A stretch of 64,000 nt of DNA, from positions 972 to 64,971 of the forward strand of contig JAWVEM010000025.1 of the NCBI GenBank assembly GCA_033856735.1, written 5' to 3'. The position numbers and the translations under genes are program-made. Of this stretch, positions 6,307-35,293 are shown in pieces. Source of the stretch: Blastocatellia bacterium (GTDB lineage Bacteria > Acidobacteriota > Blastocatellia > Pyrinomonadales > Pyrinomonadaceae). The notes below the pieces were generated by a model, which was not told where the DNA came from, ran no database searches, and worked only from the letters and a program-made list of their open reading frames with translations. Positions within the stretch are counted from its first letter, which is position 1, and the number at the start of each line of letters is the position of its first letter.

Positions 6307-6388
<82 letters not shown>

Positions 6389-10002: not shown

Positions 10003-10004
10003 CG

Positions 10005-13451: not shown

Positions 13452-13455
13452 ACAT

Positions 13456-15211: not shown

Positions 15212-15214
15212 CAA

Positions 15215-15613: not shown

Positions 15614-15615
15614 AA

Positions 15616-21100: not shown

Positions 21101-21402
21101 AGGTCACGCCCGATCTCTCGAAACCTAGCTTCATACACTTTTTCATCAATCGAGACGCCCGCAGCGTGATCGGGACTGAATGTTCGATCACGCCGCTCTT
21201 TGCGGACAGTTTTGCTCGCAGCCTCTTCCCGTCTCTAATGCGGGGGGATCAGATTGGGAAGATCCTTCTTGATCTCCGCCGGGACTTCATGACCAAAAGA
21301 AATCCTCTCGGGCTGGCGTATACGTTGTTCGGTTCAGCAACAGTAAGACTTGAACCGTCCCCAGTTCAAGATGGAGTCACAGGTTCTGAAAAGGAGCCTT
21401 AG
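18154..21402 (+). CDS. HEAT-repeat / CHAT-domain (caspase-fold) protease
   Basis: About 400 aa of PBS-lyase-type HEAT repeats (D..VR..AA.ALG). The C-terminal CHAT dyad is ILYFFTHGH (His) and VFLNMCESA (Cys). GTG at 18154 lies 13 nt after AGGAGG; the alternative is TTG at 18073. Confidence 0.8.
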   Translation: MTAAQQTIAALIQSLGSADSHTRRRAAEALARLGKTAVPALMNALKHQDARVRAGAADATRRMGAKASAVIPLLVERLKDRDSEVASNAALALGSCGSASRVAIPALIEFLKTDHTDSAIKALKQLRPLSEPALIDAIGDSDYLLSKRAALALWGETPERVSILIESMQSPDLRVRRGATSFLGAIRGIGTEAVSALLNALTEPDAKVRCYAAQSLIGRENHSDLVVSALTSVLGDESENVQVAVVQAIGTYGTAAEPAVPELIKLLDREAGPKIYREVAQALKTLGPVAVPALINTLREPDNKAGPRATEVLEEIGARGSAGIPALVEALKDENATVRSRASTCLAAIGSKTVPLLIELLGDPQQPFVEDAKEALHAVKRKLARQEEDLKIATLWAENLPSLEAHDENLNYAYFGNRAFADPTVRLGLDAKTKRELLEELNHTSGLQLEIDQALATSEEARARTSLDQPKPPPPRYTDIRFYGEDRFRGRIKELSADQPLQVKGWYEIEFAIRKSPVGDLVEGKREPLRETGKPHDVELLVTAESPDFIIEKAVQRLVLPPEGDSTAPAYFRVSPKRATVSVNKRSRIDFRVFYKFNLLAVTRSRVEVVEEGENAAISIFGSPNARTVEHVRLESDLSAVYDLLPREMHIDITRNDDNSFKFTFTYLKGLEGEKQDDDLVLTASIHLQEQALKGAVSNIRKTLLGIVMTGSYGEFVEGTDEIEFARQMNLIGRDGEALWTTLFKLDKNSPMYKIGEFLAENPLKPGSLIQVSTAPEASDLVFPWNLLYDKKIPDTVSEDVVPALDGFWGLRYIIEQRLPDTWAKDEPIVYDDDFEVTFMLWNFVQAKGQEDFLKELLAKDRGTLNTGESIKNAKVARRCLADCKSQILYFFTHGHTSIPASNIGGLTLADVKSLCSAIPNDSPQHAAWEARLEDLQQNQFASNDSWIELSVGRLSLMENLYREDVNLRNSPIVFLNMCESAQVTPDLSKPSFIHFFINRDARSVIGTECSITPLFADSFARSLFPSLMRGDQIGKILLDLRRDFMTKRNPLGLAYTLFGSATVRLEPSPVQDGVTGSEKEP

Positions 21403-21493
21403 CCACCGAACGAGCGCCACGCTTGATCTGATTGATCTCAGCGCGGAGCAGGAGTCATTCAATCAACGTAACTTCACAGACAAAGGAGAAAGC

Positions 21494-21955
21494 ATGAGTG
21501 ATTTAGCACAAGCGCGGTCCGCCGTGGCGGACTTTCTGGAAGCAAACCTCAATGAAGACCAATTGTTTGAAAAACTTGGAGTGCGAGAGAAAGTGAGGGA
21601 ACAAGACCCTGCATTGGTCAGCAGTTATTCCGACGACCCAGCCTGGGACGCCAAGGTTATGGGACCGCTTGACGACGTCCGTAGCTTTGGTCGAATCTTT
21701 TTCAAAAAGCTCAATACCCAGTGTTATGGCATTGCGTGCGGCTCGGATACGGCGGACACTGAAGAAAGGAAACAGTTAATGGCTTCCTTTGGTTTTGGCA
21801 AGACGGAAGTGGCAGCCGCACTGGCGGCGCTTTTGGTCGCTCAGCTCGCACTCGCTCCGGCTGTGGCCACCGTCGTGGCATTGTTAATTGTCAAGCTGGT
21901 TTTCAGAAATGCTTTGGGAGCTATGTGCGAAGTCTGGAAGAGCAAGATATCCTGA
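21494..21955 (+). CDS. Hypothetical protein with a C-terminal TM helix
   Basis: ATG at 21494 is preceded by AAGGAG. The TM segment is VAAALAALLVAQLALAPAVATVVALLIVKLVF. The longer ORF from 21350 overlaps the CHAT gene. Confidence 0.5.
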   Translation: MSDLAQARSAVADFLEANLNEDQLFEKLGVREKVREQDPALVSSYSDDPAWDAKVMGPLDDVRSFGRIFFKKLNTQCYGIACGSDTADTEERKQLMASFGFGKTEVAAALAALLVAQLALAPAVATVVALLIVKLVFRNALGAMCEVWKSKIS

Positions 21956-22278: not shown

Positions 22279-23157
22279 TCATGTTGTGCGGCTTTTGATG
22301 ATCCGGAAGTCATAGAGTGCCACGCTCGCGGCAACGCCGTCCTCTGAAATGCCATACAATTCAATCTGATAATCACCGGTGGAAAGAAACTCCGAGGGAA
22401 TCCGTAATACAACAACGTTCACGCCCGACTCCGATTTCAGATTGTCGATGGTGAACAGTTCACGACCTTCCACGGTACGAACAACAGTACGATACTTGGC
22501 ATACTTGACAGCAGAAGAGAACTCAAGTTGAAGCTTAACAAGCTTGTTCTCTTTATTAAGAACGACCTTTCTTAGTTCGCCTCCCTCTCGTAGACGAGTC
22601 GGCTGAAGTGTCAGTGCCATTGAAACCTGATCAGTTGTGACTAACGGACGACTGTTGAGTTCCGCCAATTGACGTTCGATCCTCGCGCGTTCTTCATCGA
22701 CAGGAGCGGTCGCCTTCGGCAATATCAATCGGGTAATTTGGGGGGCGAAAAAAACAAAGAGGAGAATTGCCGCGAAAGCAAGTGTCACCCAAAACTTGTG
22801 TCTTTGAAAAAAACCTAGTGCGTTTCGCCATCGGTCTGCCACGGCCCAGGATTCGTGGCCAATCATTGGTTGCAGTTCTTTACCTTCAGCCACGTAGACT
22901 TCAAAAGCTTGGGCGATCATTAACTTTTGGCGTCTCTCATCATCTAAGAGAAAATTTTTCTGAAAGTCTTCACGTTCGCTTTCCGAAAGCCCATCAAAGA
23001 CGTAATCATCGATAAGATCGTCCTGAGCAACCCCCAGTCTTTCCGCGAACGCTTTGTCACAGACAATGCGTTCATCGACTTCCTCCTGTAATGGCTCCTC
23101 GAGTTCGGCGAGGAGGTACTTTCTCATTATGGTTTGTTCATTATCCGGCTCGATCAT
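22279..23157 (-). CDS. Anti-sigma factor-like single-pass membrane protein
   Basis: N-terminal YLLAELEEPLQEEVDERIV.D..F...L pattern, as seen downstream of ECF sigma genes, and one TM helix (FWVTLAFAAILLFVFFAP). ATG at 23157 follows GGAGGGA; the alternative start is 23184. Confidence 0.6.
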   Translation of the reverse strand: MIEPDNEQTIMRKYLLAELEEPLQEEVDERIVCDKAFAERLGVAQDDLIDDYVFDGLSESEREDFQKNFLLDDERRQKLMIAQAFEVYVAEGKELQPMIGHESWAVADRWRNALGFFQRHKFWVTLAFAAILLFVFFAPQITRLILPKATAPVDEERARIERQLAELNSRPLVTTDQVSMALTLQPTRLREGGELRKVVLNKENKLVKLQLEFSSAVKYAKYRTVVRTVEGRELFTIDNLKSESGVNVVVLRIPSEFLSTGDYQIELYGISEDGVAASVALYDFRIIKSRTT

Positions 23158-23186
23158 CGACGGTCCCTCCGGCGGGATTCTCATCC

Positions 23187-23753
23187 TTATATGCCAGCAA
23201 GCTCGATAATATTATCCTTGCCCGAGCGGTCAAGACATTGCAGGATGCACTTTGCCAACCGCGTCCTAATGCGAAACACTCGCGCGCGCAAAGCGCCGAC
23301 CTTGAGCCGTAGTTTATCCCCCATTTCCCGGTGGGAAGCGATTTTCGCTCGTTTCTCCTCTTTGTAGTAGCTAAGGATCAATTCCGAATTCCGACGCGGA
23401 AGCTCTGCAAGACACTGATCGAGACACCTTAGATAAGGCTCTAATTCTTCATGCGACGCCACTTCTGGCGGCGCTGGTACCGCTTTTGCTCGTTGACGAA
23501 AATACTCCCGCCTTACGTTTCTCGCCACACCGTAAAAGTAGCGCTCCTTGACTCCGACATAATTGGCCTTTAACCACGTCACCTTCTCGGCCACTCTATT
23601 AATAGTTTCGTCAGCCAGATCTTCGGCTTCGTCGCACTGTCGGTTCAGGAATACCGTTATGAGCCTGCGGCGAATTGCCTCATACTTTTCGCCTGAGTGA
23701 GCCCGATTTGGTTCAAGCCAATCGAGCAATCCGTCGAATTCTTCTTTAGTCAT
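23187..23753 (-). CDS. ECF-type RNA polymerase sigma factor
   Basis: Region 2 (AEDLADETINRVAEKV...YFYGVARNVRREY) and region 4 (ELILSYYKEEK...EMGDKLRLKVGALRARVFRIRTRL). Confidence 0.8.
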   Translation of the reverse strand: MTKEEFDGLLDWLEPNRAHSGEKYEAIRRRLITVFLNRQCDEAEDLADETINRVAEKVTWLKANYVGVKERYFYGVARNVRREYFRQRAKAVPAPPEVASHEELEPYLRCLDQCLAELPRRNSELILSYYKEEKRAKIASHREMGDKLRLKVGALRARVFRIRTRLAKCILQCLDRSGKDNIIELAGI

Positions 23754-23831
23754 TGTTCAGGCAGTGTTCTTTGGTTTCGTGATCGGCCTCGAAACAAGGA
23801 TAGCACCGCAAGCCATAACGGCAACGCGAAT

Positions 23832-26800
23832 TCAGGCCGTCCGCACGGCCCTGTGCCGCGTCGCGAGATAAGTGCCGGCAGCTAGTAACAGCATCACGCC
23901 GGCTATTATTAGTATGTGTTTCCAGTTCAAACGGTGAACACCAACCTCTTTTCTGTACTCACCTTGCAGAATAAATCCGGCCCAATAGAACGGTTCTCGC
24001 CACTGCGGTTGCCGTTGCATCTTAAGCTGGGCGGTCCTCAGCGCCGCGGCGGGCGGTAGACCATCTCGTAACATGGCCGCGTAAAAGTAAGTCATGAACT
24101 CTGCGGTAGCATTGTCATCAACCTTCCAAAGACTGGCAACTACGCTTTTCGCACCTGCGTACATGAAGCCACTTGGAAGACCAACTATTCCTTCCCCGTG
24201 AACGTTCTTGCCAAGACCTGTTCGGCAAGCACTCAATACCACCAGATCCGCGGATAGATCGAGACTATAGACATCGTGCATCCGCAGAAATCCGTTAACA
24301 TTCTGGCCATGCTCGTCAACCATTGAAAGAAGCACGCCGGATAGATCTGGATGCTCAACGTTAAGCAGTCCGTGAGTCGCGACGTGCAGAATTCGGTAAC
24401 CGCTCATTCCGTCGCTAACGAATCTTTGTTTGGTGGCTTCGAAACCAGTAGTAATCACTCCGTCACCAGACGGGACAAATTCCATGATTGCTTTCGCTTC
24501 GCGCAGCGTTGAAGGAAGACGCGGGATATGCAATGGCGTAGCAAAAGCGTTGAAATCTCTCGTTGCTGTAGAAAGATAGACGCCGGAAGTTTCACTTTCG
24601 GTGGAGTCAGTGTTTGCGGCCAAAACTCTGGGGTCGTCTTTCTCAAATACTGGATCAGCTATAACCGCAATTGTTTTGTTTGACGGTTTAAGCTCTTTTC
24701 TTTCACTGCGGAGGGCGGCCAGAGTCATCGCTGACGGAAGCATAACGATTTCGTGCGCCGAGACTAATGGCTGGTTCGACGGCGAGTCAGGCATCGGCAA
24801 TGCTTCAAAAGGAATGTAACGAAGAATCCCGTCGCCAACAATTAGAAGGCGCTTGGTCCCAATTCGCGAAGAAACTTGCCCAAGCAGCATGTTGCTTAGC
24901 ATTGTTGACTGGTTCTTAAATTCGATCGCCGCTTCACCTAATATTTTGTCTCGTTCCGTGGCCCCAAGATCCTCGCTTAGAGACTGTCTTATCGTGAGTG
25001 AGTCGTATACCTCTCTAGCAAGCGCCTCGATTGTGGCCCGATCCGGTAATTCATAACTCGTGATCTCGGTGCCGCTAACCACCCATAGGTAACTATGTTC
25101 ATCACCAAGCGCGAATTCCAGTAGTAGCGCGTCGTCTTCCGTCACGAGACTTTTTAGGTCTTCTGCGCGCAGTTGGTCCGGTTGGGTCAGAACCGCTCGA
25201 CGAGGGCTTTGTATTCGCACTTGTGCGCGTATCGCCTGATAGTCGATAGTAAGCGCATCGAGTTCTCGAGATAACTTGTCGGCGTCCTCTTGGGTGTGTT
25301 TTCCAGCCAACAGCCGTGCCTGGTATTCGGCCTTCTCGTCAAGTGTGCGCAATAGCTCCTGTTGCCGGGACAGGAGATCCGCGTAGGGAACTCCGCGAGA
25401 TTCAATTTTCTCAGTCAGAAGCGAATCCAAAAGCGAACGAGCGCTCGCTTTCTCATTCGCTAACAGTGCCGCCAATGCGTATTCACGATCGGGAAACTGG
25501 CTGTTTAAGTCCATTAACACACTAATATAGAGTTCATATTGATTATGTATTGATGAGAAGTAAGATGTGCGAAGCTGAGAGTTGTTGATCTTGGTACGCA
25601 ACGACTCGCCGATCGCTATCGAGTCTTGAATTAGTGACAGGGCTCCGGTCAAATTCCCCCGATCCCTTTCGGCATTGGCAGTATTGAAAAGCGTCAAAGC
25701 CTCACCATGCCGATCTCCAGTCTCTCGCATAAGAAGAAGCGCCTGCTGAAAGTTGGCGAGTGCTTCGGGTAAGTTATGTGAAGCTGTTTGGATATGTCCG
25801 ATGTCGTTTAGGACATAGGCCTCACTCCGACGATTGCCGAGTTTTCGGTAGATCTGCAAGGCAGCGTCGAACTGTTGGAGCGCAGGCATAACCTTGCCTT
25901 GAGAGAAATAGATCGTACCGAGCCCCTTCATCGCGTGAGCCTCAATTATACGATCGCCAACCTGGCGGCTGAGTTCCAGGCTCTCTTGGTAAAACTTAAG
26001 CGCCTGGGTGTTTTCTCCTTTCTGAAATAAAACCCTGCCAACCAGGAATTTGTTAAGGGCCACGAAATCGCGATTACCAATCGCTTCATAAAGCTGCAAG
26101 GCCCGAGAGTAGTTGTCGAAGGCTGCATCGTAATCATTTAGGTCTTGATACGCGCGAGCAACTCCGTTTAGTGCGGCCGCCGCCCCTTGCTTGTTGCCAA
26201 TTGCCCGAAAGTAGTCACCGGCTTTCTTGTGTAAATCGAGAGCTGTTTGCTCCTCTCCAAGCAATGAATGCACACCGCCCAACACAGTCTGTGCCAGCGC
26301 AGCACCGCGACCGTCATTGATGGATTGGAATAGCGCAAGGGAGCGTTCAAAGTACTCAGAGGCCTTTTGCACATCTCCAAGATCGCTGTGCGAATAACCA
26401 AGGTTTAGGAGTCCAAGCGCCTGGCCGTTACGCTCGCCGATCTCGGCGTATATAGAGTACGCTCGCTCGAACAACTCGATTGACTTACGCAATTCACCTA
26501 AGGAGTAATCAGCCTCACCCGTCGTATTTAACGCCTGTGCCTCCGCTCTCCTATAGGTGGCAGGCTGCCGAGACGCATCGATTCGATCGATCATGTCTAA
26601 CATCCTCTTGGCATATGAAAGCGCCTTTTGGTTTTCACCTAAGTAAATGTTGGTGTAGCCGAGCCCATTGAGCGCCGCGAGAACCCCCAATTCATATACT
26701 TTACCCTCGCTGATCGATAACGCCTTCTCATATTGCGCTAAACTCGCTTGGTATTGACTCAGCCCGAAGTAAACATCTCCCATCACGCAGAGGGCTTCCG

Positions 26801-27410
26801 CCGCTCGGCCAAATTCGCCTGCCGACTTCCACAAACGGACCGCCTCGTCGTATTTGGAGAGTGCGCTCATCTGTGCCGATTCATTATGGTGTTCCTGGAG
26901 TTCGTCTGCTTCTGCCATGAAGCGGTTCGCTTCGTCCGTCAATCGATTTCTCGGTGTCGTCGTCGCAATCTCGGCCACCTGTAATTCATATGCCTTCTCC
27001 CTGGCGTCGGTTTCAATCGACTTGACCTCGATGCGATAGGTCTGTGGGGTGTCAGTCGAAAACGAAAGCTGCAACGTGCCGTAACGTCGACCTAAGACTT
27101 CAAAGCATGACTGAGCTTCTCCACAAAAAGAAGCCACTAGCTGCAAGTCACCTTTGTTGATATCGATGCGTGCATGCTGCCCAGCCAAAAGATTGAGCGC
27201 ATATACTCGCGCTTCGCCGGCAGAAATCACGTCCGAGACTTTTTGTCCCGTGGTCAGGTTGTGTGGCTCCGAGGGAGACGCGGCTTGCGTCAAAGAAGAG
27301 GGCAATGGCGTACGCGTTGGGAATCCAGCGAAGTCGGTCAGAGCGAGGCAAACCGCGCCTAAGGACACCGATGCGAGGGTTCGACATAAAATTCTTGAGA
27401 GGAGTTTCAA
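23832..27410 (-). CDS. Exported TPR-repeat / CHAT-domain protease with a C-terminal membrane anchor
   Basis: Signal-peptide-like N-terminus and many TPR units (A...Y..AL.I....G). The CHAT dyad is ILHVATHGL and VVLSACRTGLG. The C-terminal TM helix is ILIIAGVMLLLAAGTYLA. The TTG start follows AAGGAA. Confidence 0.8.
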   Translation of the reverse strand: MKLLSRILCRTLASVSLGAVCLALTDFAGFPTRTPLPSSLTQAASPSEPHNLTTGQKVSDVISAGEARVYALNLLAGQHARIDINKGDLQLVASFCGEAQSCFEVLGRRYGTLQLSFSTDTPQTYRIEVKSIETDAREKAYELQVAEIATTTPRNRLTDEANRFMAEADELQEHHNESAQMSALSKYDEAVRLWKSAGEFGRAAEALCVMGDVYFGLSQYQASLAQYEKALSISEGKVYELGVLAALNGLGYTNIYLGENQKALSYAKRMLDMIDRIDASRQPATYRRAEAQALNTTGEADYSLGELRKSIELFERAYSIYAEIGERNGQALGLLNLGYSHSDLGDVQKASEYFERSLALFQSINDGRGAALAQTVLGGVHSLLGEEQTALDLHKKAGDYFRAIGNKQGAAAALNGVARAYQDLNDYDAAFDNYSRALQLYEAIGNRDFVALNKFLVGRVLFQKGENTQALKFYQESLELSRQVGDRIIEAHAMKGLGTIYFSQGKVMPALQQFDAALQIYRKLGNRRSEAYVLNDIGHIQTASHNLPEALANFQQALLLMRETGDRHGEALTLFNTANAERDRGNLTGALSLIQDSIAIGESLRTKINNSQLRTSYFSSIHNQYELYISVLMDLNSQFPDREYALAALLANEKASARSLLDSLLTEKIESRGVPYADLLSRQQELLRTLDEKAEYQARLLAGKHTQEDADKLSRELDALTIDYQAIRAQVRIQSPRRAVLTQPDQLRAEDLKSLVTEDDALLLEFALGDEHSYLWVVSGTEITSYELPDRATIEALAREVYDSLTIRQSLSEDLGATERDKILGEAAIEFKNQSTMLSNMLLGQVSSRIGTKRLLIVGDGILRYIPFEALPMPDSPSNQPLVSAHEIVMLPSAMTLAALRSERKELKPSNKTIAVIADPVFEKDDPRVLAANTDSTESETSGVYLSTATRDFNAFATPLHIPRLPSTLREAKAIMEFVPSGDGVITTGFEATKQRFVSDGMSGYRILHVATHGLLNVEHPDLSGVLLSMVDEHGQNVNGFLRMHDVYSLDLSADLVVLSACRTGLGKNVHGEGIVGLPSGFMYAGAKSVVASLWKVDDNATAEFMTYFYAAMLRDGLPPAAALRTAQLKMQRQPQWREPFYWAGFILQGEYRKEVGVHRLNWKHILIIAGVMLLLAAGTYLATRHRAVRTA

Positions 27411-27415
27411 GCTGA

Positions 27416-27691
27416 TTATTCCTTCTTGGAAACCACCGTTTCGGAATCGCGCAGAGTAACGGTGATTGGAGATTCCAGGCGGTCACGACTATCTGCGGGT
27501 TCGGAGAACTTGGGATTCTTATTCCTTAACATATCAAAAATCTCTATCGCTTTCTCCGGGCTTGCTCCTGTGAGTTCTACCTCATACTGCCCGTCGCGAA
27601 TCTTTATGCAGCGGCTGCTCTTACCTCGCAGAAACTCGACCAGAAGTGGACCGGCGGACTTAGAAAGAACGAGGCCCCCGCAGCCGACCAA
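27416..27691 (-). CDS. Small domain resembling an effector-associated constant component (EACC1-like)
   Basis: GGLVLSKSAGPLLVEFLRGKSS.CIKIRDGQYEVELTGASPEKAIEIFDML resembles the EACC1 pattern from memory. It has only a TTG start and overlaps the upstream Ubl ORF by 88 nt in another frame, so it is probably the 3' part of a frameshifted Ubl fusion. Confidence 0.4.
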   Translation of the reverse strand: MVGCGGLVLSKSAGPLLVEFLRGKSSRCIKIRDGQYEVELTGASPEKAIEIFDMLRNKNPKFSEPADSRDRLESPITVTLRDSETVVSKKE

Positions 27692-28020
27692 AACACCATC
27701 TGCCCCAGCTCGAACCAGTTCGAGCCTGGTCCGGCTCCCACCGCGGAGATCCCGATGTCGATACGGTCGCCGCCCACGACCCCGGCCTGTTCAAGAGTCA
27801 TGTTGGGCGAAATCGCCTTCTGCGTCCTTGCTACCAATAGATGATAAGGCTGACCGTCTGGTAACGATCGTAGAAACGATCCCGTGCCGTCGACATCACG
27901 TCCGAGTTCGTTGAGAATCTCTTGACCGGTGCATTGGGTACTCACGTCAGCAACCAGGCTTATCGGCATATCCGTGGGGTGCACAAAAACTATCTCAATT
28001 GCAGGATATCCTTCACTCAT
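27604..28020 (-). CDS. Ubiquitin-like beta-grasp protein (paralog of 34173..34484) with a C-terminal extension
   Basis: About 40% identical over ~90 columns to the Ubl at 34173-34484 by hand alignment. Both have ...[VI]GAG at the end of the fold. ATG follows GAGGGGG. Confidence 0.65.
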   Translation of the reverse strand: MSEGYPAIEIVFVHPTDMPISLVADVSTQCTGQEILNELGRDVDGTGSFLRSLPDGQPYHLLVARTQKAISPNMTLEQAGVVGGDRIDIGISAVGAGPGSNWFELGQMVFWSAAGASFFLSPPVHFWSSFCEVRAAAA

Positions 28021-28311
28021 AAATTCGCCCCCTCATTAAACCTGATTAGAGTATTTGTTAGTAGCTGACGATCAAATACGGAGAGGAGATCTCCCAACTC
28101 GAACGAGTCGCTTCCGGCCGTCGCAAAGCCGAGCCACTATCACCCAGATTGCAAGAAAATGGAAGTCTAAGCCTGAGCGAGGGTTCGTTACCTTAGCAGA
28201 GATTAATGGACGCTTGACTAAAGAGCGGGCTGGCGGTTAAGTCTCAAAGTCAACTTTGCGTAAGATTCGAGAATCAAGCTATTGTCTTGGGAGATTCGTT
28301 AATAGCGCCGT

Positions 28312-28350
28312 CGCAATAAGAAAGCAGCGGTAGGGATGCCCACCGCTGCT
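28312..28350 (-). terminator. Intrinsic terminator for the minus-strand small gene
   Basis: AGCAGCGGT (28323-28331) pairs with ACCGCTGCT (28342-28350). On the minus strand the stem is followed by TTTCTTATT. Confidence 0.6.
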
Positions 28351-28446
28351 TCGAGGTACATGGCTTTAAGGAACTGACGAATCCGCAAAAACAAAAACCG
28401 ACGTCTTCGGTTCGACTGTTGACTATACGATGAACGGACGCAATTT

Positions 28447-28641
28447 CTATCCTTTCAGAGTGTCGTCAGATTCCCCAAGGCTCTTTGATCGGTCGTCACC
28501 GGCTACCCCTCCTCGAGCACGCGTGCTCCCCGCCGCGTCACCCGAGTCGGCGGCTTTGGATCGATCTTCTGGGGTCGCTCCCCCTCGGGTTTTTGATTCT
28601 TTCTCTTTGGAACCTTGTTCGTTAGTGATCTCGGTGCTCAT
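28447..28641 (-). CDS. Small highly charged Gly/Asp/Ser-rich protein (KGG-type stress-protein-like?)
   Basis: 64 aa. AAGGAG lies 8 nt upstream of the ATG and a terminator hairpin lies downstream. The gene is isolated between two divergent operons. Confidence 0.5.
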   Translation of the reverse strand: MSTEITNEQGSKEKESKTRGGATPEDRSKAADSGDAAGSTRARGGVAGDDRSKSLGESDDTLKG

Positions 28642-28914
28642 TTAGAGTTCTCCTTCTGATTATCGGTTGTAAGACCGGTGTCAGCCGCATGAACGCGTAC
28701 CTGCCGGAATCCGCAGATGTCGCGCGTTTTGGAACTTCCACCACTATTTCATGATTTCGCCACGACGAACGTTACGCATGGCCGCGTGAGCCGGTGCGCC
28801 TGCATAACGTTTTGAAGCGGCCGGCATATCAGTTTAGAGATTTGGCATTTTCCAGAATTGGCATTCGGCTTTTGTCCGGAGCGGCTTGGAAGTCTGAATG
28901 CGCCAGGAGAATAA

Positions 28915-31900
28915 ATGGAACTGCCCGAAGAGTTAGCCGAGCAAGAACTATTCGAGGCGCACATCGCTGTCGACCCATCACAACCTATCGATGAGGCTGG
29001 TGCAGATCCTGCATCGCTGGAAGAACAACACAACGAAGACGAGGCAATCGGCGACGAAGAAGGGGAAGCTGACATTCCTGCAGAGCAAGTTGCCGAAGCT
29101 GATCAAGCTGAAGAGGAGGACCAGGAGGAAGAGCGACCAGGAGAAAAAAGACTCAAAGTCTTCATCAGTTACAACCGGAATGACAACGACGGGGCCATCG
29201 CTGATCGAATCTACGACGAGCTGAGCCAACAATATGACGTATTCTTAGACCGACGCACGATCAAGATCGGTGAATCATACGAAAAAGTCACCGAAGACTG
29301 GCTGGACACCTCCGATTTCGTAATCGCCCTGATCTCAGCCAAATCGGTCGAGACTTCCTTCATAAAAGCCGAGTTACAAAGAGCCTACGAGCGCTACAAG
29401 ACTGAGGCGCGTCCGACCGTCATACCCTTGCGCATCAATTATGCCGGCCCCTCCGGGCTGAGATTAGATGCTTACATCGGGCACTTTCAGCGAATCGATT
29501 GGGATAACAGAAACTTCGACTGGTTACTCAGGCAACTACACGCAGGACTTAGCAATAAATTAGCCGCGATCACGAAAGCCGTTATCACCGGCACAGACAT
29601 CATTCCCATAAGCGATACTCTGCGCGAGCGTTATGCTCAAGCCTTTGTCGAGCCACGTGAGTTGATCAGCACCCCCGTGTCGTTCGACGAGAAAAGGTTG
29701 TTGTGGATCAGCGGCGATGCGGCGGTCACAAATTATGTCGCCCTCTCGATTGCCGCGACGATCACAGACAAGTCATTATACGAAATTACGAAACAGCGAA
29801 AATGGTCTGAGATCAACAGCACTTTGATTAGTGACTCAACCATCGTTCTGCGTGACGCCCTGCCAGCCTCTTATCTCCAGGAATCCGGCGCGATCGGTGA
29901 ATGGCACGCTCTCCGCGCAATCATTGAACGAAACAACATCATTATTGCCACTGCTCCTAATGATGAATTCGAAAAGTTGGAGCAGGAACTGCTGAGATAT
30001 CAGTTCACTGACTACCAGCATCGCCAGGTCGATGCCGGCTCGTATAGCGATGACTCAAAGTTGCTGATCTTTTCTCGACTGATTGAGCATCTCTTCAAAA
30101 CCGGTGAGTTAGATGAGGACAAATATGCTTGGGCTACCGATCTAGTAAAAGACCCAAACGAAACAGATTCAGTCGGCGGTCAAGGTCGCGCGCGGGCCAT
30201 CGAAAGACGCCGGCGCGACATGCGTAAGAAGTTCCGCGAAAACCTCGGCCGGTGGTCGCCTGCCGACATAGTACGGTTCGTACTCAGCTTGTCCCAGGTG
30301 GACAGCGAGAGTGATATCACTCGGCTCCTGCAGCGCTCCGCGGCGATTGAGGATGAGATTCGCTCGTGGTTCCTCGCGCTTGACGATTCCACTCGATGTT
30401 TCGTCATGACGGTGGCTCTTTTCGCCAACCTTGATCATCAAGAATTGTGGGAATACTACAAGTCCATAGTCGAACATTTACGTCATCTCGATGCAAATCT
30501 CCGCTTGCTGCCCTTCGGCATTTGCCGTAAGCGTGCTCATCCTTATGTTTCTTTGGATGGGCCGATTGCGCTGGACGAGCGCGTGGCTGATGCCGTCAGA
30601 CAGGAAATAGCTCGTAGCTATCGCGAATACTTCGTTGAGTTGACTCCGAAACTCAAAGACTGGTCCGTGCCACCGGGGCGAAGTCCAAAAACCATCGAAC
30701 AGCGCAATCAGCGCAAGCCGAGGATTGAAGAAACAAGGGAAGCGCGAATGGCGATCGCACGCATGGTTGGTATAGCCGCTAGGCTTGGTCTCGACGACCT
30801 TACAGAGATTCTCGACTACTGGGCCACGGATTCGAATATCCAGATTAGAAAATCAGTCGCGTTCGCTTTTGCGGAAACAGCCAAGAGTCCGACCGGAGTC
30901 AACTATGCCCTTAACCTCCTGGAGCGATGGAGTCTCGACATTAACTCGCACGGTCAAACTAGGTGGCGTGCGTTGGCCGCCGCTCACGCTCTTGGCTTCG
31001 TCACTGCCGCGGCCAATGATGCGTATGTGACGGTGCGAGCGCTCCATTGCCTCCGTACCTTCGCCCGGTCACGGCGACAGGACGCGCGCTTCTACGCTTC
31101 TATCGCCGTCCGCCAAGTCGCACGATATGCACCTTTATCGTCGACTGAAGGAGCGCTCGGCAGGCTGGCGAAAGACGATCGAACTGAAGTCCGCTTGAAT
31201 GTCGCGGCCGCACTCAACGAGGCGCGTGCATACGACGCTGACACGGCCGATGCCTTAATTGAACGATGGGTTCTGTCCGATGATCCCAACCTCCGGTGGG
31301 TCGCGCTTTGCGGGATTGTGACGAGTCGCAAAAGTCAGAATGGTACAAGCCCCAAGAAGTACGAGCGGCTCCTGGACTTTCTCGACAGCGAAGAATCCGC
31401 GTTGAGTCTGGCCAGCGTCCTGAGTGAAACGGTGACGGACGATCATTACGGGCAGGTTGCGAAGGACAGTCTCGGTTTCCTCGCAGAACATGCAAAAGAG
31501 GCGCAGTGGACAAATTTCGCGGCCGGCCTCGCGATTGTCTCCACTAGCAAACTGGACAAGGAAATATTGCCCCTTCTGCGTTTTTCAGACGGCCCACCGT
31601 TCGAGGAACGCGCCGTCGATGTTAGGCGAGAGGTTTTGCGGAGAAAACTAGGCTCGCCGGCGCGATTCCTGGCTACATTGAGAGCCTGGCTTAACGGGAA
31701 AGACACGCAACTTGAACTCTTCAGAGCCCTAACACAATTGCTCGATGTCACCCCGGATAGTTCACGATCTGAGGTTATTGCGGCGATGGCCGAACAGTTT
31801 TGTGCGGAGCCCGCGAGTGTGAACGAAACACTTTCCGCACTTCGAATCCTCGCCCCAGCACACTTTGAAACCCTCGCACAAGGAGTACGCAACGAAGCGT

Positions 31901-32487
31901 TTCGGCGATCACTTGAAGATTCGGCGGGTTTTGTGGCGCTGGCTGGCGCGCAACTTGCTCACGTTGAAACTGCAGACGACACCGCAGAAGCAATTGTGCG
32001 ATTAGCCCGAGATGATCCACCAGGCTCGCGCGAACAGATGATGCGGGCGCTGCTCGAGGCGGATGAGCAAGCTCCGCAAATGACAAAGAACCTCGTTGTA
32101 ATTCTCCGCACCGGGGAACCAGACCTCGTCCGCATCGTCTATGAATTCAACTATCGGCTAATAGAAAAAGCGATGACGGTTCCCGTGACCTTTCCCGCAT
32201 TTGTGCTGGAGACGGTTCGAACCGATGACGACGCCATCAGCTTGTTGAATTACCTGGCTGAGCCTGAGCCGCAGGGGAACCGAAGTACTTTGGTTCGAAC
32301 ACTGGTTGAAGCCAGGCTCCTGGAGGCGAATGGCGTCGACAAGCTCCTGGCCCTGCCGGCCCTGAAGCAGTGGACCAATCTCGCTTCGCTGCAAGCCGAG
32401 GTTGCGCGTTCATATTACCTGCGGAGAATTTTTGCGCCCCGGTTTGTGACAAAGTTGTTCAGCAAGAGGAGCATCGAGAATTGGTAG
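28915..32487 (+). CDS. TIR-domain protein with a degenerate NTPase-like middle region and C-terminal HEAT/ARM repeats
   Basis: About 80-aa acidic low-complexity N-terminus. TIR region: KVFISYNRNDNDGAIADRIYDEL...VFLDRRTIKIGESY...DFVIALISAKSVETSFIKAELQRA. HEAT-like units: D.N..IR..VAFAFAE and DDRTEVRLNVAAALNEA. Confidence 0.75.
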   Translation: MELPEELAEQELFEAHIAVDPSQPIDEAGADPASLEEQHNEDEAIGDEEGEADIPAEQVAEADQAEEEDQEEERPGEKRLKVFISYNRNDNDGAIADRIYDELSQQYDVFLDRRTIKIGESYEKVTEDWLDTSDFVIALISAKSVETSFIKAELQRAYERYKTEARPTVIPLRINYAGPSGLRLDAYIGHFQRIDWDNRNFDWLLRQLHAGLSNKLAAITKAVITGTDIIPISDTLRERYAQAFVEPRELISTPVSFDEKRLLWISGDAAVTNYVALSIAATITDKSLYEITKQRKWSEINSTLISDSTIVLRDALPASYLQESGAIGEWHALRAIIERNNIIIATAPNDEFEKLEQELLRYQFTDYQHRQVDAGSYSDDSKLLIFSRLIEHLFKTGELDEDKYAWATDLVKDPNETDSVGGQGRARAIERRRRDMRKKFRENLGRWSPADIVRFVLSLSQVDSESDITRLLQRSAAIEDEIRSWFLALDDSTRCFVMTVALFANLDHQELWEYYKSIVEHLRHLDANLRLLPFGICRKRAHPYVSLDGPIALDERVADAVRQEIARSYREYFVELTPKLKDWSVPPGRSPKTIEQRNQRKPRIEETREARMAIARMVGIAARLGLDDLTEILDYWATDSNIQIRKSVAFAFAETAKSPTGVNYALNLLERWSLDINSHGQTRWRALAAAHALGFVTAAANDAYVTVRALHCLRTFARSRRQDARFYASIAVRQVARYAPLSSTEGALGRLAKDDRTEVRLNVAAALNEARAYDADTADALIERWVLSDDPNLRWVALCGIVTSRKSQNGTSPKKYERLLDFLDSEESALSLASVLSETVTDDHYGQVAKDSLGFLAEHAKEAQWTNFAAGLAIVSTSKLDKEILPLLRFSDGPPFEERAVDVRREVLRRKLGSPARFLATLRAWLNGKDTQLELFRALTQLLDVTPDSSRSEVIAAMAEQFCAEPASVNETLSALRILAPAHFETLAQGVRNEAFRRSLEDSAGFVALAGAQLAHVETADDTAEAIVRLARDDPPGSREQMMRALLEADEQAPQMTKNLVVILRTGEPDLVRIVYEFNYRLIEKAMTVPVTFPAFVLETVRTDDDAISLLNYLAEPEPQGNRSTLVRTLVEARLLEANGVDKLLALPALKQWTNLASLQAEVARSYYLRRIFAPRFVTKLFSKRSIENW

Positions 32488-32549
32488 AGATTCGACCATA
32501 ACGTTTTCTTCTCAATTTCATAGTAAGACGGAGACGAAGCAAATTCTTA

Positions 32550-32918
32550 ATGTCTGGATGGGAGATCGCGGCAATCGTTGCCTTGGTATTGGCGTTGCTT
32601 ATCGGCGTCGCGGCGATCATCGTTTACGTAGTCGCGGAAGATCGATTGCCTCCGAGCCGGCAGCAGGAAAGGCTGCCGCCGATCGTCTTTCGGCATGAGC
32701 CATTCGGTACGATCACGCCGGGGCTGATTTCATTTAGATCAAGCGAGGCACATCGACGGGTTACGCCACGCCAATTCAACTTTCGGAATGATGGTAATGA
32801 CATCAGGACTAGAGAGATCAAAGAGGACCTCGACTTGTATTGCAAGCTAACCGGTAGACTGGCACGCGATTGCCGATGTGAGTTCTGTAGGAAACTGAAG
32901 GAAAAACTTGGAACCTAA
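32550..32918 (+). CDS. Small membrane-anchored protein with a C-terminal Cys cluster
   Basis: N-terminal TM helix (IAAIVALVLALLIGVAAIIVYVV) and C-terminal CKLTGRLARDCRCEFC. It overlaps the E1 start by 11 nt. Confidence 0.5.
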   Translation: MSGWEIAAIVALVLALLIGVAAIIVYVVAEDRLPPSRQQERLPPIVFRHEPFGTITPGLISFRSSEAHRRVTPRQFNFRNDGNDIRTREIKEDLDLYCKLTGRLARDCRCEFCRKLKEKLGT

Positions 32919-34176
32919 TAACGACAAAGTGTTTTCGCGCGAGCGATTGGCAGGATACGACCCGGAACGCATGAGTCGTAGCTGCGTGTTAGTGGTAGGG
33001 GCTGGCGCTCTTGGACAAAACACCGCAATGAATCTCGCATTGGCGGGCTTAGGGGAACTGCGGATTGTCGACAAGGACATCTTTGAAGAGCACAACCGCA
33101 CGCGTAGCCCGGCCTATCCTCTGCCTGATGAGGTGGACCGCTACGGAACCGACAAAGCCGGTGCCGTCGCTCGTAAACTGCGGCGCCTAATGACGGCAAA
33201 GCACCCTTCGATGTACTACGCAAATAACTGGATTCAAGAATTGGGTGACGGAGCGTTTCGCGGCGTGTCTGTCGTTGTGTCGTGTGTCGACTCGCAACTC
33301 GCGCGTGCTTACCTGTCGGACAAGACGAGACAGCACGGGTTGCCTTTTATTGAAGGCGGCTTTCAGGCTGCGAACATCCGGCTGACCTGCTTTCCCGCGG
33401 CGCGCCCGGAAATCACAAAGACGCTGCCATGCTGGCGGTGTTCTCACCCAACGGTCGAAGGCAGCTTTTCCTGTGCTAACTACGCGCAGCAAGCAGAAGC
33501 GTTGGGCGTGATCCCGGCAATCCAAAATGCGGCCGCGGTATTGGGTGGCCTGCAGGCTGAAGCCGCAATACAAGCTGTTCATCACGAACCGACCGGTAGC
33601 GAGACTGCCCGATGTTTTGAGTTCAACGTAAGAACGTGGAAGGCCCGAACCGTAGAGCTTGCAAAGGATCCGAAGTGCCCGGGCCTCCATCGCCTGCTTG
33701 ATTCGCAGCCGATAATACTACAAACGACCGCGGACGATACGGTGGCGGAACTGCTTGTCGAAATGGGCGAGCACCTGGGAACGCAGGCATGCATCTGGCT
33801 ACCGATGAAAACGTATTCCAAGTATTTGTCGGCGATGCCATGCAGTAACCCCAAGTGCCGGAACATCGTCGCAGTGCGTGGCCCTGAGTGGCGCTGGAAG
33901 ATGAATCCGCGTTGTTCGGACTGTGATGGACCGTTCTTACCGATGCGTGACGGGGCCGGCGTCTCAAGTTACGCGGTACCAGAATTGAGTTTGAGCTCCA
34001 GCCCTGAGGTGTTGGAAGCGACGTGTCGAACAATTGGCCTGGCTCCTCTTGGGCTTGTTGCCGGAGCCGAGGCAGCCTCGACGCAGGCCCACTTTGATGA
34101 CGCCCCCCCGCCGGCCCTATTTCAATTGCCCGGATCGTTGGATGAACTTTATCAATCAGGAGAAAACACACCATGA
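32908..34176 (+). CDS. ThiF/MoeB-type E1-like Ubl-activating enzyme
   Basis: VLVVGAGALGQNTAMNLALAGLGELRIVDKDIFEEHNRTR Rossmann motif, plus paired CxxC motifs (CWRC; CPKCRN...CSDCDG). The stop overlaps the Ubl start (ATGA). Confidence 0.8.
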   Translation: MEPNNDKVFSRERLAGYDPERMSRSCVLVVGAGALGQNTAMNLALAGLGELRIVDKDIFEEHNRTRSPAYPLPDEVDRYGTDKAGAVARKLRRLMTAKHPSMYYANNWIQELGDGAFRGVSVVVSCVDSQLARAYLSDKTRQHGLPFIEGGFQAANIRLTCFPAARPEITKTLPCWRCSHPTVEGSFSCANYAQQAEALGVIPAIQNAAAVLGGLQAEAAIQAVHHEPTGSETARCFEFNVRTWKARTVELAKDPKCPGLHRLLDSQPIILQTTADDTVAELLVEMGEHLGTQACIWLPMKTYSKYLSAMPCSNPKCRNIVAVRGPEWRWKMNPRCSDCDGPFLPMRDGAGVSSYAVPELSLSSSPEVLEATCRTIGLAPLGLVAGAEAASTQAHFDDAPPPALFQLPGSLDELYQSGENTP

Positions 34177-34484
34177 CCGAAGAAACACTCGAGATCCACT
34201 TCATTCATCCTCACACCAGCAAAAGGCTGGTGGCAGATCTCAGTCCGAACTGCACCGGAACCGATGCCTTGCACGCGCTTCTGAGCGCGGACGGCGGCGA
34301 TGGCCCATTTCTAAGTCAGGCCGGCGGCCAAACCTACGAATTGTCTTTGGAAAGAACCGGTACCGCGATTACTCCCAACATGACATTTCGCGAGGCCGGA
34401 GTGATTAACCGCGACATTATCAACATCGCTCCGACCGTAATTGGCGCTGGGTCAGTCTTCAGATCAGGACCGGGACAGACCTAA
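34173..34484 (+). CDS. Ubiquitin-like beta-grasp protein (BilA-like), precursor form
   Basis: 103 aa. The beta-grasp-like fold ends in ...PTVIGAG and is followed by a 13-aa tail, SVFRSGPGQT and preceding residues. It sits between the E1 and E2 genes. Confidence 0.7.
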   Translation: MTEETLEIHFIHPHTSKRLVADLSPNCTGTDALHALLSADGGDGPFLSQAGGQTYELSLERTGTAITPNMTFREAGVINRDIINIAPTVIGAGSVFRSGPGQT

Positions 34485-34567
34485 CGGTCTCACGTTGACC
34501 GTGTGCGAAGAATTGCTTTCCCGGGTCTTGCTGAACCAATGAATTGTTGCCGCAAAGGAGAATGGCC

Positions 34568-35269
34568 ATGACCGAATCGCTGGACGAGAGTGACCGTCGT
34601 TCAAGGCTCACTTACGACTATCAAACCGCGATGATGATGAGGCCTCTAATGGAGGCCGAGGCATACCGCAATCTGGACGACTTGTTGGCGCGCCGCAACC
34701 GCATAGACTCCGTCGCGGACGCGTATTTAGCGACGCACTATCGCGTTCTCTATCGGGTCAGAACGCTGATTGGCCCCGCGCGTTATTGGGATGAAACGAC
34801 AGTGCGCTTTGATCTCTTTGCCAACAATGATTATCCAATGAACGAACCCGCCAGTTGGGTCATCGACGGTCCAATGCCGTGGTCGCCGCATTTTCTGGAG
34901 GGTCGTGAGATCTGTATCGGCCCAATTTGGAAACGAGCCCAAGGCAGGATTCTGCTCTGTGAACTGATGATTCATGTGGCCAGGTTGCTGAATTTCGATG
35001 AGCCCCCCTACGAAGATCCCGAGTATGGAGGCTGGCAACCAGATGCGGTGGAATATTGGGAGACGACGCTTGGCAGACAGCCAATTAGCAAATTGGTGTA
35101 TCCCTCTGTACCACGTCGCGTCCCGCCGCCAGCGGAACCGGAACCTGAACAGCCGACAAGAGCGATCGTCTTCCGTAATACGATTGAATGGAGCCCACCC
35201 AGCATCAGGATTAGACCACAAGCTCCCGCTGAGTCAGCTTCTTCGCTGATCAAAGTCAGGCCTCAATGA
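34568..35269 (+). CDS. E2-like ubiquitin-conjugating enzyme homolog
   Basis: PWSPHFLEGREICIGPIW resembles the E2 HPN...C active-site region. ATG at 34568 lies 7 nt after AAGGAG; the ORF opens at 34544. Confidence 0.6.
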   Translation: MTESLDESDRRSRLTYDYQTAMMMRPLMEAEAYRNLDDLLARRNRIDSVADAYLATHYRVLYRVRTLIGPARYWDETTVRFDLFANNDYPMNEPASWVIDGPMPWSPHFLEGREICIGPIWKRAQGRILLCELMIHVARLLNFDEPPYEDPEYGGWQPDAVEYWETTLGRQPISKLVYPSVPRRVPPPAEPEPEQPTRAIVFRNTIEWSPPSIRIRPQAPAESASSLIKVRPQ

Positions 35270-35293
35270 AATGGCTTAGACCCAACGTTACTT

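Follow-up and report, generated by a model that had tools for sequence, protein, structure and literature searches.

What might a caspase-fold protease, predicted to sit outside the cytoplasm, be doing beside the genes of a sigma factor from the extracytoplasmic function (ECF) class, its anti-sigma factor and a ubiquitin-like (Ubl) protein? Our interest in this question was aroused by a locus of Blastocatellia bacterium (assembly GCA_033856735.1), found in a stretch of 64,000 nucleotides of contig JAWVEM010000025.1 (positions 972 to 64,971, forward strand) that is called the window throughout this text. A first-pass annotation, made from the letters alone, had listed five minus-strand genes in the order Ubl, EACC1-like, TPR-CHAT, ECF sigma and anti-sigma, and had raised the possibility that the protease triggers cleavage of the anti-sigma factor and thereby switches on the genes of a surrounding island. 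The five open reading frames (ORFs) all lie where they had been placed, and their labels (TPR-CHAT with an intact His/Cys dyad, ECF-type sigma, anti-sigma, Ubl and EACC1-like piece) hold. The conserved unit of the locus is an RGG-repeat gene behind an ECF-type promoter, together with the genes of the TPR-CHAT protein, the ECF sigma factor and a single-pass anti-sigma factor. We consider it reasonably likely that this unit is a split module of the DdvA/DdvS kind, in which an extracytoplasmic TPR-CHAT protein gates an ECF sigma factor that switches on defence genes. The five ORFs are the following.

23832..27410, minus strand: TPR-CHAT cysteine protease gene, 1192 amino acids, with a TTG start at 27410
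23187..23753, minus strand: ECF-type sigma factor gene, 188 amino acids
22279..23157, minus strand: anti-sigma factor gene, 292 amino acids
27604..28020, minus strand: 'Ubl' ORF, first half of a broken Ubl-EACC1 gene
27416..27691, minus strand: 'EACC1-like' ORF, second half of the broken Ubl-EACC1 gene

The CHAT and sigma genes are separated by 78 nt and the sigma and anti-sigma genes by about 30 nt, and a hairpin scan of the window found no terminator-like site between the three. Because the gaps are short and free of such sites, co-transcription of the CHAT, sigma and anti-sigma genes is supported. Residues 836-1150 of the protease match the CHAT domain PF12770 with an E-value of 1.6e-72 (244.8 bits against a cut-off of 24), numerous TPR matches cover residues ~180-620, and the catalytic motifs read ATH(1013)G and LSAC(1062), the Cys motif being identical in all five orthologues checked and the exact His pattern in three of the five. 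A Kyte-Doolittle scan revealed an N-terminal hydrophobic segment (residues 6-30) behind the basic start MKLLSRILCR, and a C-terminal transmembrane segment (residues 1164-1185) followed by the basic tail TRHRAVRTA. The basic n-region with its hydrophobic N-terminus and the C-terminal transmembrane segment with its Arg/Lys-rich tail both recur in the CHAT orthologues inspected, and the protein is predicted to be exported and anchored in the membrane by its C-terminus. Pfam, motif and hydropathy results confirm the architecture that had been drawn for it at first reading (signal-like N-terminus, TPRs, intact dyad, C-terminal anchor), and the conserved terminal signals support the suggestion that it would lie outside the cytoplasm. 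These parts map to the window as follows.

27321-27410, minus strand: signal-like segment of the CHAT protein (hydropathy)
24374-24372, minus strand: codon of His1013, in the ATHG motif
24227-24225, minus strand: codon of Cys1062, in the LSAC motif
23921-23856, minus strand: C-terminal transmembrane anchor of the CHAT protein (hydropathy)

The CHAT gene is closely coupled to the ORF that precedes it. Five nucleotides separate the stop codon TAA of that ORF (27418-27416) from the TTG start at 27410, and the AAGGA Shine-Dalgarno sequence of the CHAT gene lies within the final codons of the upstream ORF, an arrangement that had been described before, is confirmed in the sequence and is found alike in a related locus, L008. 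Among solved structures the best match of the CHAT domain is DdvA (8rot_B). The match is weak, and its alignment spans the ATHG and AC motifs of both proteins, which in DdvA hold H862 and C907 (PMC11506125). A PDB search with the full CHAT protein returned TPR matches only.

The sigma factor was compared with curated and structural families. Its residues 29-169 score 41.1 bits against TIGR02937 (cut-off 42.9), its match to Sigma70_r4_2 reaches 21.8 bits (cut-off 25.7), and a profile built from five orthologous sigma factors matches the ECF sigma factors SigE (E 0.001) and SigW in the PDB; single-sequence PDB searches with the sigma factor and with the anti-sigma factor gave nothing useful. The cognate anti-sigma gene begins 3-30 nt past the sigma stop in every locus. 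Public collections start the window protein at ATG 23157 (292 amino acids), and ATG 23184 is also open, giving a 301-amino-acid ORF. In the anti-sigma family, 19 of 26 members match zf-HC2 (PF13490) at E-values up to 1, the best being 8.4e-6. The window protein has one transmembrane segment, placed at residues 119-147 by hydropathy and at helix 121-145 in a predicted model (codons ~22803-22717). This model (predicted local distance difference test score, pLDDT, 80.7) consists of an N-terminal helical bundle, the transmembrane helix and an Ig/CopC-like beta-sandwich; a fold search with it returned Ig/CopC-like matches for the outer domain and none for the anti-sigma domain. A near-invariant Arg (Arg190) stands in the LLR-EGGE stretch of the outer domain; the loop that holds it and a juxtamembrane helix (residues 152-169) are candidate cleavage sites. 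This Ig-like domain is predicted to face the same extracytoplasmic side as the CHAT protease.

The combination of a TPR-CHAT protein with an ECF sigma factor is also found in type III-E craspase (Cas7-11-Csx29, Csx30, RpoE), where TPR-CHAT (Csx29), under control of a CRISPR effector, would cleave a Csx30-like protein and free an RpoE-type sigma factor. The window sigma factor does match CAS_III-E_sigma of NCBIfam weakly, at an E-value of 3.8e-4 and with 20.5 bits where the cut-off is 100. However, the window holds no CRISPR array and no ORF of Cas7-11 size, its four ORFs of more than 1000 amino acids encoding a UvrD-like helicase, a HEAT protein, the CHAT protein and a TIR protein, and the related loci have no CRISPR-Cas component. 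The CHAT protein described here carries export and anchor signals whereas Csx29 is cytoplasmic, and its partner is a transmembrane protein of the anti-sigma-domain type. Absence of CRISPR-Cas components from the window and from the related loci effectively refutes a craspase identity, and we give it practically no credence. What craspase and the CalpL/CalpT/CalpS system share with the module proposed here is protease-controlled release of an ECF-type sigma factor in an immune context; they differ from it in that no CRISPR component is present, in that the protease is predicted to be extracytoplasmic, and in that the anti-sigma factor is a membrane protein rather than the soluble Csx30 or CalpT.

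The search for related loci went through the anti-sigma factor and included a genome scan with a 13-sequence anti-sigma alignment. Where the organism is named, the family occurs in Acidobacteriota only (Pyrinomonadaceae, Blastocatellia). The order and spacing of the CHAT, sigma and anti-sigma genes are the same in all 13 other loci that show the region (L001, L003, L005, L008, L011, L012, L014-L019 and L021), down to an anti-sigma identity of 26%, and in these loci the sigma/anti-sigma pair is never seen without the TPR-CHAT gene. The first-pass annotation would have abandoned its proposal had the pair been transcribed independently and found among unrelated neighbours in homologous loci; in the loci compared the CHAT gene is always adjacent, and the proposal withstands this check. 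A conserved five-gene order, which it had suggested checking, is not found, the triad being universal and the Ubl-EACC1 gene accessory: the latter is absent from L001, L003, L011, L012 and L014-L017, and L005 begins within the CHAT gene, with the upstream region outside its contig. Across loci whose proteins are 26-88% identical, the order of the triad and the small RGG ORF does not vary. Their variable neighbours come from a small recurrent set, comprising large TIR proteins, the E1 operon, C14 caspases, ThsB-like TIRs, kinases and BrxC/BrxD-type proteins. Defence islands are mosaic and the flanking cargo does vary between loci, which would suit the view that these genes are chance neighbours with no functional link; but the invariant order of the triad and the RGG ORF, and a shared promoter motif found far above chance, contradict mere juxtaposition, and we hold that view to be very improbable.

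The promoter motif has two ECF-like blocks, C[GA]TAAC[GA]TT-N13-15-CAT. It occurs at 30 sites in 253 kb, against 1.17 expected and a maximum of 4 in 100 second-order Markov simulations, and 26 of the 30 sites have a C at a flanking position on which the search put no constraint. Nearly all sites are intergenic and oriented at the RGG ORF, a TIR gene, the E1 operon, a caspase gene or other cargo. The features of the window that bear on it are listed below, with the RGG ORF in other loci.

28748..28775, minus strand: motif GTAACGTT-N14-CATGAA, ~100 nt upstream of the small RGG-repeat ORF
28804..28830, plus strand: divergent motif ATAACGTT-N13-CATATC, upstream of the gene of a 1190-amino-acid TIR protein (28915-32487)
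32498..32524, plus strand: motif ATAACGTT-N13-CATAGT, upstream of the operon starting at 32550
32550..36448, plus strand: operon and probable regulon member, encoding a 122-amino-acid transmembrane protein, E1, Ubl, a 241-amino-acid protein and JAB
28447..28641, minus strand: small hydrophilic RGG-repeat ORF, 64 amino acids, with two copies of RGG-x3-[DE]DRSK
28315..28413, minus strand: two terminator-like hairpins after the small ORF, one at 28413-28395 and one (GCAGCGG...CCGCTGC with a T-run) at 28349-28315
L001 5232-5432, L003 4952-5140, L008 9058-9315, L009 6982-7236: RGG ORF in other loci
L018 14651-14995, L019 14807-15052, L021 9450-9716: RGG ORF in other loci

The site at 28748..28775 is the sole match in the 64-kb window to a stricter pattern, even with one mismatch allowed, and the motif stands at the same place before the RGG ORF in L001, L003, L008, L009, L011, L012, L014, L015, L016 and L021. 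Across loci the divergent copy points at a TIR or a caspase gene, with equivalents of the TIR-gene site in L008, L009, L014, L018, L019 and L021; equivalents of the E1-operon site occur in L008, L009, L018, L019, L020 and L021, and L011, L012 and L014 have copies at the genes just downstream of the anti-sigma gene. A fourth match in the window (35294-35254), with a 15-nt spacer, lies over the junction of the genes for the 241-amino-acid protein and JAB and looks like chance. The motif is missing from L017, the most divergent locus (sigma 37% identical), so that motif loss there co-varies with sigma divergence. In architecture it resembles the experimentally mapped DdvS promoters, which read GTAA-N16-CGT (PMC6061681). 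The earlier suggestion that the sigma factor switches on island genes gains support at the level of sequence from these motifs upstream of the TIR gene, the E1 operon and the small ORF, in the window and in related loci. A related element, AAC[GA]TTG-N14-C[GA]TG, lies 110-150 nt upstream of the CHAT gene in loci that lack the Ubl-EACC1 fusion; it could be a variant of the same promoter class and serve autoregulation. In the form AAC[GA]TTGTATCTCC-N-C[CG]TGTTAAATAA the CHAT-upstream element is conserved in L003, L011, L012 and L015, and no clear counterpart was found in the window.

The small RGG ORF precedes the triad in every locus where this region was examined, with one to eight copies of its motif; in L018-L020 the repeat is a tandem PRGGGDASGKDLT. 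The encoded peptides are acidic or charged and have no signal peptide, and their gene always lies between the ECF-like promoter and the CHAT operon. The product could be a substrate, a pseudosubstrate or a regulator of the protease. The same RGG-x3-[DE]DRSK sequence was also observed in the tail of one Ubl-EACC1 homologue (P0039). The GCAGCGG..CCGCTGCTTTT hairpin downstream of the ORF is conserved in L001, L003, L008 and L009.

To place these observations in a mechanism, the DdvA/DdvS system offers the closest guide. In Myxococcus, an ECF sigma factor is paired with a transmembrane anti-sigma factor whose periplasmic part is itself a TPR-CHAT protein, the pair controls a CRISPR island that includes a cyclic oligonucleotide-based anti-phage signalling system (CBASS) through four sigma-dependent promoters, and self-cleavage by the DdvA CHAT domain has been proposed as the site-1 step preceding RseP (PMC11506125). 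The locus described here shares with it an ECF-type sigma factor; an anti-sigma factor that crosses the membrane once and has a putative anti-sigma domain at its N-terminus; a TPR-CHAT protein with a His/Cys dyad that is here predicted to be extracytoplasmic; and several sigma-type promoters with a GTAA(C) -35 block before neighbouring defence operons. In contrast to DdvA, the TPR-CHAT protein is a separate polypeptide in all loci, with its own signal-like N-terminus and C-terminal anchor, and is not a member of the DdvA family; the anti-sigma factor bears only a small Ig/CopC-like outer domain and has no zinc ligands; the genes run in the order CHAT-sigma-anti-sigma; the -10 block of the promoters is CAT and not CGT; and the cargo consists of TIR, E1/Ubl/JAB and caspase genes rather than CBASS or CRISPR. 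The host belongs to the Acidobacteriota, whereas the DdvA authors reported DdvA-like proteins only in Myxococcota and one Comamonas. Under the split arrangement that we favour, the anti-sigma factor would keep the sigma factor at the membrane in the resting state, and the exported TPR-CHAT protein would sense an envelope or phage-derived signal. The outer domain of the anti-sigma factor would then be removed, most simply with CHAT acting as the site-1 protease and intramembrane proteolysis following. The freed sigma factor would transcribe the flanking defence genes from the C[GA]TAAC[GA]TT-N13-15-CAT promoters, and induction would cover the genes for the RGG and large TIR proteins, the E1-Ubl-JAB operon, which may extend to DUF4407 and the caspase, and further cargo.

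The same genes could also be read as an ordinary envelope-stress ECF system, in which the anti-sigma factor is degraded by the site-1 and site-2 proteases of the host and the CHAT protein is a regulon product, a sensor or a scaffold, perhaps with other exported substrates. This classical route from an envelope cue is typical for most ECF/anti-sigma pairs, TPR arrays frequently serve as binding platforms, and genes for CHAT, subtilase and carboxypeptidase proteins have been noted in the context of ECF54 sigma factors, though no mechanism has been proven there (PMC8999054). Against this stand the strict linkage of the three genes, which persists with the dyad intact even where the anti-sigma factors are 26% identical, the nature of the motif-linked cargo (TIR, E1/Ubl/JAB, caspase and ThsB-like genes, and not genes of envelope maintenance) and the DdvA precedent, where the same protease fold occupies the periplasmic side of the anti-sigma factor (PMC11506125). 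We judge the envelope-stress account to be unlikely. The ECF54 group itself is a partial parallel to the locus, having a CHAT-domain gene conserved near the ECF sigma gene and a proposed proteolytic control; it differs in that ECF54 is described without an anti-sigma factor (PMC8999054), which is always present here.

Several points weigh against the split DdvA/DdvS-like interpretation. The sigma scores fall just under the curated ECF cut-offs, and the window anti-sigma factor has no Pfam match. The H-x3-C-x2-C zinc motif is absent from the latter: the corresponding stretch reads VDERIVCDKAFAERL, with one Cys and no His, and since the zinc ligands are missing the anti-sigma domain is a non-zinc variant. 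The signal-peptide and topology calls for the CHAT protein come from hydropathy and the positive-inside rule. The link between the motif and the sigma factor, which we infer, is one of association, and CHAT-mediated cleavage is still a hypothesis even for DdvA (PMC11506125). As for the ECF-type promoter that the first-pass annotation had suggested looking for, copies were found elsewhere in the island (RGG ORF, TIR gene, E1 operon), but in loci of the window type no clean copy lies directly upstream of the Ubl-EACC1/CHAT operon, and the terminator-like hairpins part the motif-driven small ORF from that operon. PADLOC has no model for the triad and none for the fusion.

The positions of genes beyond the RGG ORF and the triad are given here.

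32908-34176, plus strand: E1 (ThiF)
34173-34484, plus strand: standalone Ubl, ending in VIGAG and a 10-amino-acid tail
35294-36448, plus strand: JAB peptidase, two genes after the standalone Ubl
36710-38089, plus strand: DUF4407, a recurrent partner of the module
38105-38491, plus strand: ThsB-like TIR, a recurrent partner of the module
38512-39519, plus strand: C14 caspase, a recurrent partner of the module

E1 and JAB match the PADLOC E1-E2 and JAB models, and searches recognised no E2 domain in the 241-amino-acid protein between Ubl and JAB. The standalone Ubl is a paralogue of the Ubl domain of the fusion (hidden Markov model E-value 5e-33). DUF4407 follows JAB wherever the contig extends that far, and the set of DUF4407, ThsB-like TIR and caspase accompanies the triad in L001, L003, L011, L012, L015, L016 and L018-L021. 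The caspase matches the NCBIfam model 'caspase, EACC1-associated type' with E 4.8e-28 and 98 bits, below the cut-off of 140. No canonical EACC1 gene adjoins the caspase gene (38512-39519). In L001, L003, L011, L012 and L015 the divergently oriented neighbour of the triad encodes an orthologue of this caspase (65-75% identical), and in several of these loci a copy of the motif is aimed at it.

The first-pass annotation had treated the Ubl and EACC1-like ORFs as separate genes. They prove to be a single gene that a 1-nt deletion has split, and its parts are laid out as follows.

27416..28020, minus strand: Ubl-EACC1-like fusion gene, whose repaired form encodes ~201 amino acids; the 1-nt deletion that breaks it lies between 27662 and 27661
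28020 to ~27730, minus strand: Ubl domain of the fusion, ending at the GAG junction (residues 95-97)
~27720 to 27416, minus strand: hydrophobic helix and EACC1-like C-terminal half of the fusion

Although read in different frames, the two ORFs share 88 nt. When joined, with the frame change following Leu120 (codon 27663-27661), their reading aligns end to end with the intact proteins P0037 (195 amino acids) and P0036 (229 amino acids), and also with P0168 (74% identical, 220 amino acids). Run X3, an unrelated soil metagenome, contains a contig that is identical over 150 nt except for one extra base after 27661, which restores ...ASFFLKSAGPLLVEFLRGK... exactly and marks it as an intact allele. 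P0035, a 98% identical relative, has a different frameshift, with one T fewer in a TTTT run a few codons upstream (~27692). This comparison was made at the level of Logan contigs, and the two public copies of the window contig are 100% identical, possibly from the same sample. Programmed -1 frameshifting was considered and rejected: no X-XXY-YYZ slippery heptamer lies at the shift, an intact allele differs by one base, and P0035 is shifted elsewhere; we therefore read the lesion as a recent inactivating deletion. Two different frameshifts in near-identical strains may reflect selection against a toxic gene, or decay.

An exhaustive profile search yielded 130 relatives; a metagenome scan with the fusion alignment confirmed no locus. 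The family of the N-terminal 100 residues consists mostly of standalone proteins of 83-100 amino acids whose conserved ending is G-A or GAG, in some cases followed by a short tail. Of 40 Ubl relatives, 23 have a match to YukD (best E 3.7e-8) and 11 to Rad60-SLD, both of them beta-grasp families, and the best PDB matches of the family profile are ubiquitin and SUMO, so that the Ubl label given at first reading is upheld. An AlphaFold model of P0037 has the element order beta-beta-alpha-beta-beta, though at low confidence (pLDDT 42, from a two-sequence alignment) and in a form too poor for a fold search. The C-terminal half comprises a hydrophobic helix and a small alpha/beta unit; this half also occurs by itself and as the C-terminal part of proteins such as P0133. 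P0133 (E 6e-5) and P0140 were retrieved with a profile built from P0036 and P0037; P0133 scores 23.9 bits against Pfam EACC1 (PF19953, threshold 23.6 bits, model positions 38-103) and P0140 scores 19.9 bits, just below. The half has in common with proteins above the Pfam EACC1 threshold the hydrophobic helix and the motif F[LI]K-x-A-x-P-x-L-x-E[WF]L[KR]-x-[RK]-x-SRS...G-x-x-E. Neither the 91-amino-acid ORF nor the joined protein, P0036 or P0037 matches PF19953, even at E-values up to 10. The name 'EACC1-like' can be kept as a statement of remote homology, by way of P0133, to the toxic pore-forming fragment demonstrated by Evans et al. 2025 (bioRxiv 10.1101/2025.11.14.688446), but not as a score of the window protein itself. 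The fusion appears from its sequence relationships to be a remote EACC1 relative in which the usual autoinhibitory N-terminus is replaced by a Ubl domain. It has no export signal, as had been noted for its Ubl part and as a hydropathy scan agrees, and no segment that reaches the transmembrane hydropathy threshold.

A block of ~42 nt (CTTCC-TTTT---CAATCTG-GTGATA-TG-CTC-GC) was observed to be near-identical in the window (28128-28169, minus strand), in L008 (~9690-9735) and in L009 (~7555-7600). It lies 110-150 nt upstream of the Ubl-EACC1 start, in intergenic DNA whose flanks are otherwise unalignable. On the opposite strand it falls in a 61-amino-acid ORF (28055-28240), and it has no Rfam match.

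The fusion gene lies directly upstream of the CHAT gene in the window (5-nt gap), in L008 (21-nt gap), in L021 (4-nt overlap) and probably in L009, where the contig ends. In L018-L020 it faces the E1 operon, and a TIR gene separates it from the CHAT gene. It accompanies an E1-Ubl-(~250 amino acids)-JAB operon in 7/7 loci, and tracks that operon rather than the CHAT protease. These placements bear on a further explanation, according to which the locus is a protease-effector module: TPR-CHAT would cut off the Ubl cap and free a pore-forming EACC1 fragment, and the sigma/anti-sigma pair would only regulate expression. EACC1 genes do sit directly upstream of proteases that cleave their products (bioRxiv 10.1101/2025.11.14.688446), in the window, L008 and L021 the fusion gene closely adjoins the CHAT start or runs into it, and its C-terminal half is distantly related to EACC1. 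However, the CHAT protein is predicted to be extracytoplasmic whereas the fusion has neither an export signal nor a segment at the transmembrane threshold, most triad loci have no Ubl-EACC1 gene, a TIR gene intervenes in L018-L020 where the fusion faces the E1 operon, and the cluster offers alternative activators in the JAB peptidase and in the cytoplasmic caspase that scores as 'EACC1-associated type'. Because of the topology mismatch and the alternative gene placement, the CHAT protein is unlikely to be the activator of the fusion, and we find the protease-effector explanation quite improbable. JAB acting at the Ubl G-x-G junction, or the cytoplasmic caspase, are speculative but better candidates.

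Like the EACC1-protease modules (Kaur et al. 2020, PMC7159879; Evans et al. 2025), the window has a small gene directly upstream of a caspase-fold protease gene. Unlike them, its N-terminal autoinhibitory part is a Ubl domain ending in G-x-G and the adjoining protease is predicted to be exported; in addition, the gene is frameshifted here, and in other loci it stands beside the E1/JAB operon. The operon at 32550..36448 resembles bacterial Ubl operons (E1-E2-JAB; Bil/Bub/CBASS Cap2-Cap3) in its E1 (ThiF), its JAB and its small beta-grasp protein with a C-terminal Gly and a short tail, and departs from them in having a second Ubl copy fused to an EACC1-like toxin half and an ECF-type promoter motif on the operon. 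In the split sigma module that we favour, Ubl-EACC1 would be an accessory effector whose Ubl caps an EACC1-type pore-forming half, belonging functionally with the E1/JAB/caspase operon and inactivated in the window. A more elaborate proposal is a two-key regulon, in which CHAT cuts the anti-sigma factor in trans and, as the second key, JAB acts at the G-x-G junction to free the Ubl-capped EACC1-type pore-former, or E1 conjugates the fusion. We offer this proposal tentatively and think it rather improbable. If it were true, the 25-30 kb cluster would be one sigma-gated immune regulon, and the repeated independent frameshifts would reflect the cost of carrying the toxin.

The surroundings of the locus agree with the word 'island' that had been used for it. 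A tRNA gene at 6309-6382, the sole match in an Rfam scan of the window, is directly followed by a tyrosine-recombinase gene (6396-7487). GC content is ~0.50-0.53 in the cluster region and 0.56-0.58 beyond ~42 kb, and core-like genes (LigT, penicillin amidase) begin near 42 kb, where the GC rises. The tRNA/recombinase pair and the ~42-kb position are likely the limits of an integrated island of ~35 kb. We infer an anti-phage role for this island.

Other gene groups were observed in the window. A separate operon at 14846-17363 (plus strand) encodes Multi_ubiq (121 amino acids), Prok-E2_E (132 amino acids), a JAB-ThiF fusion (460 amino acids) and BubE (121 amino acids); it is a Bub/6E-type ubiquitin-like system, distinct from the E1-Ubl-JAB operon at 32.5-36.4 kb. 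A 1109-amino-acid HEAT-repeat protein is encoded at 18073-21402 (plus strand); Pfam detects HEAT alone in it, and its C-terminal third resembles a caspase/CHAT fold (YFFTHGH ... IVFLNMCESA). The next gene (21350-21955, plus strand) encodes a 201-amino-acid protein with a long hydrophobic C-terminus. The two genes are convergent with the anti-sigma gene and may form a second pair of protease and effector. On the minus strand (8764-13502), a UvrD-type helicase of 1165 amino acids with an N-terminal M78/IrrE-like peptidase region adjoins a DUF2130 protein whose gene holds a 120-nt tandem duplication (9659-9891); these may form another defence-type pair.

The regulatory logic of the locus, which had been called unusual, is less so in view of DdvA/DdvS, of type III-E craspase with Csx30 and RpoE, and of the EACC1-protease modules. 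Our literature searches brought up no account of a split CHAT/ECF sigma/anti-sigma module, the RGG peptide or a Ubl-EACC1 fusion. The Ubl-EACC1 fusion suggests a link between ubiquitin-like processing and pore-forming toxins in bacteria, and the universal RGG-repeat peptide is a new component of the module. A caspase-fold protease that lies on an anti-sigma factor's outer face has been studied only in DdvA/DdvS. With protease and anti-sigma factor encoded separately, and with catalytic residues and candidate target loops mapped, the locus would make trans-cleavage, the DdvA-type hypothesis, directly testable. In this soil acidobacterium, a conserved triad probably turns on neighbouring anti-phage genes. 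The promoter motif predicts a regulon of TIR, Ubl-conjugation and caspase genes, and if that prediction is true, sigma-controlled "inducible immunity" would extend beyond Myxococcus.

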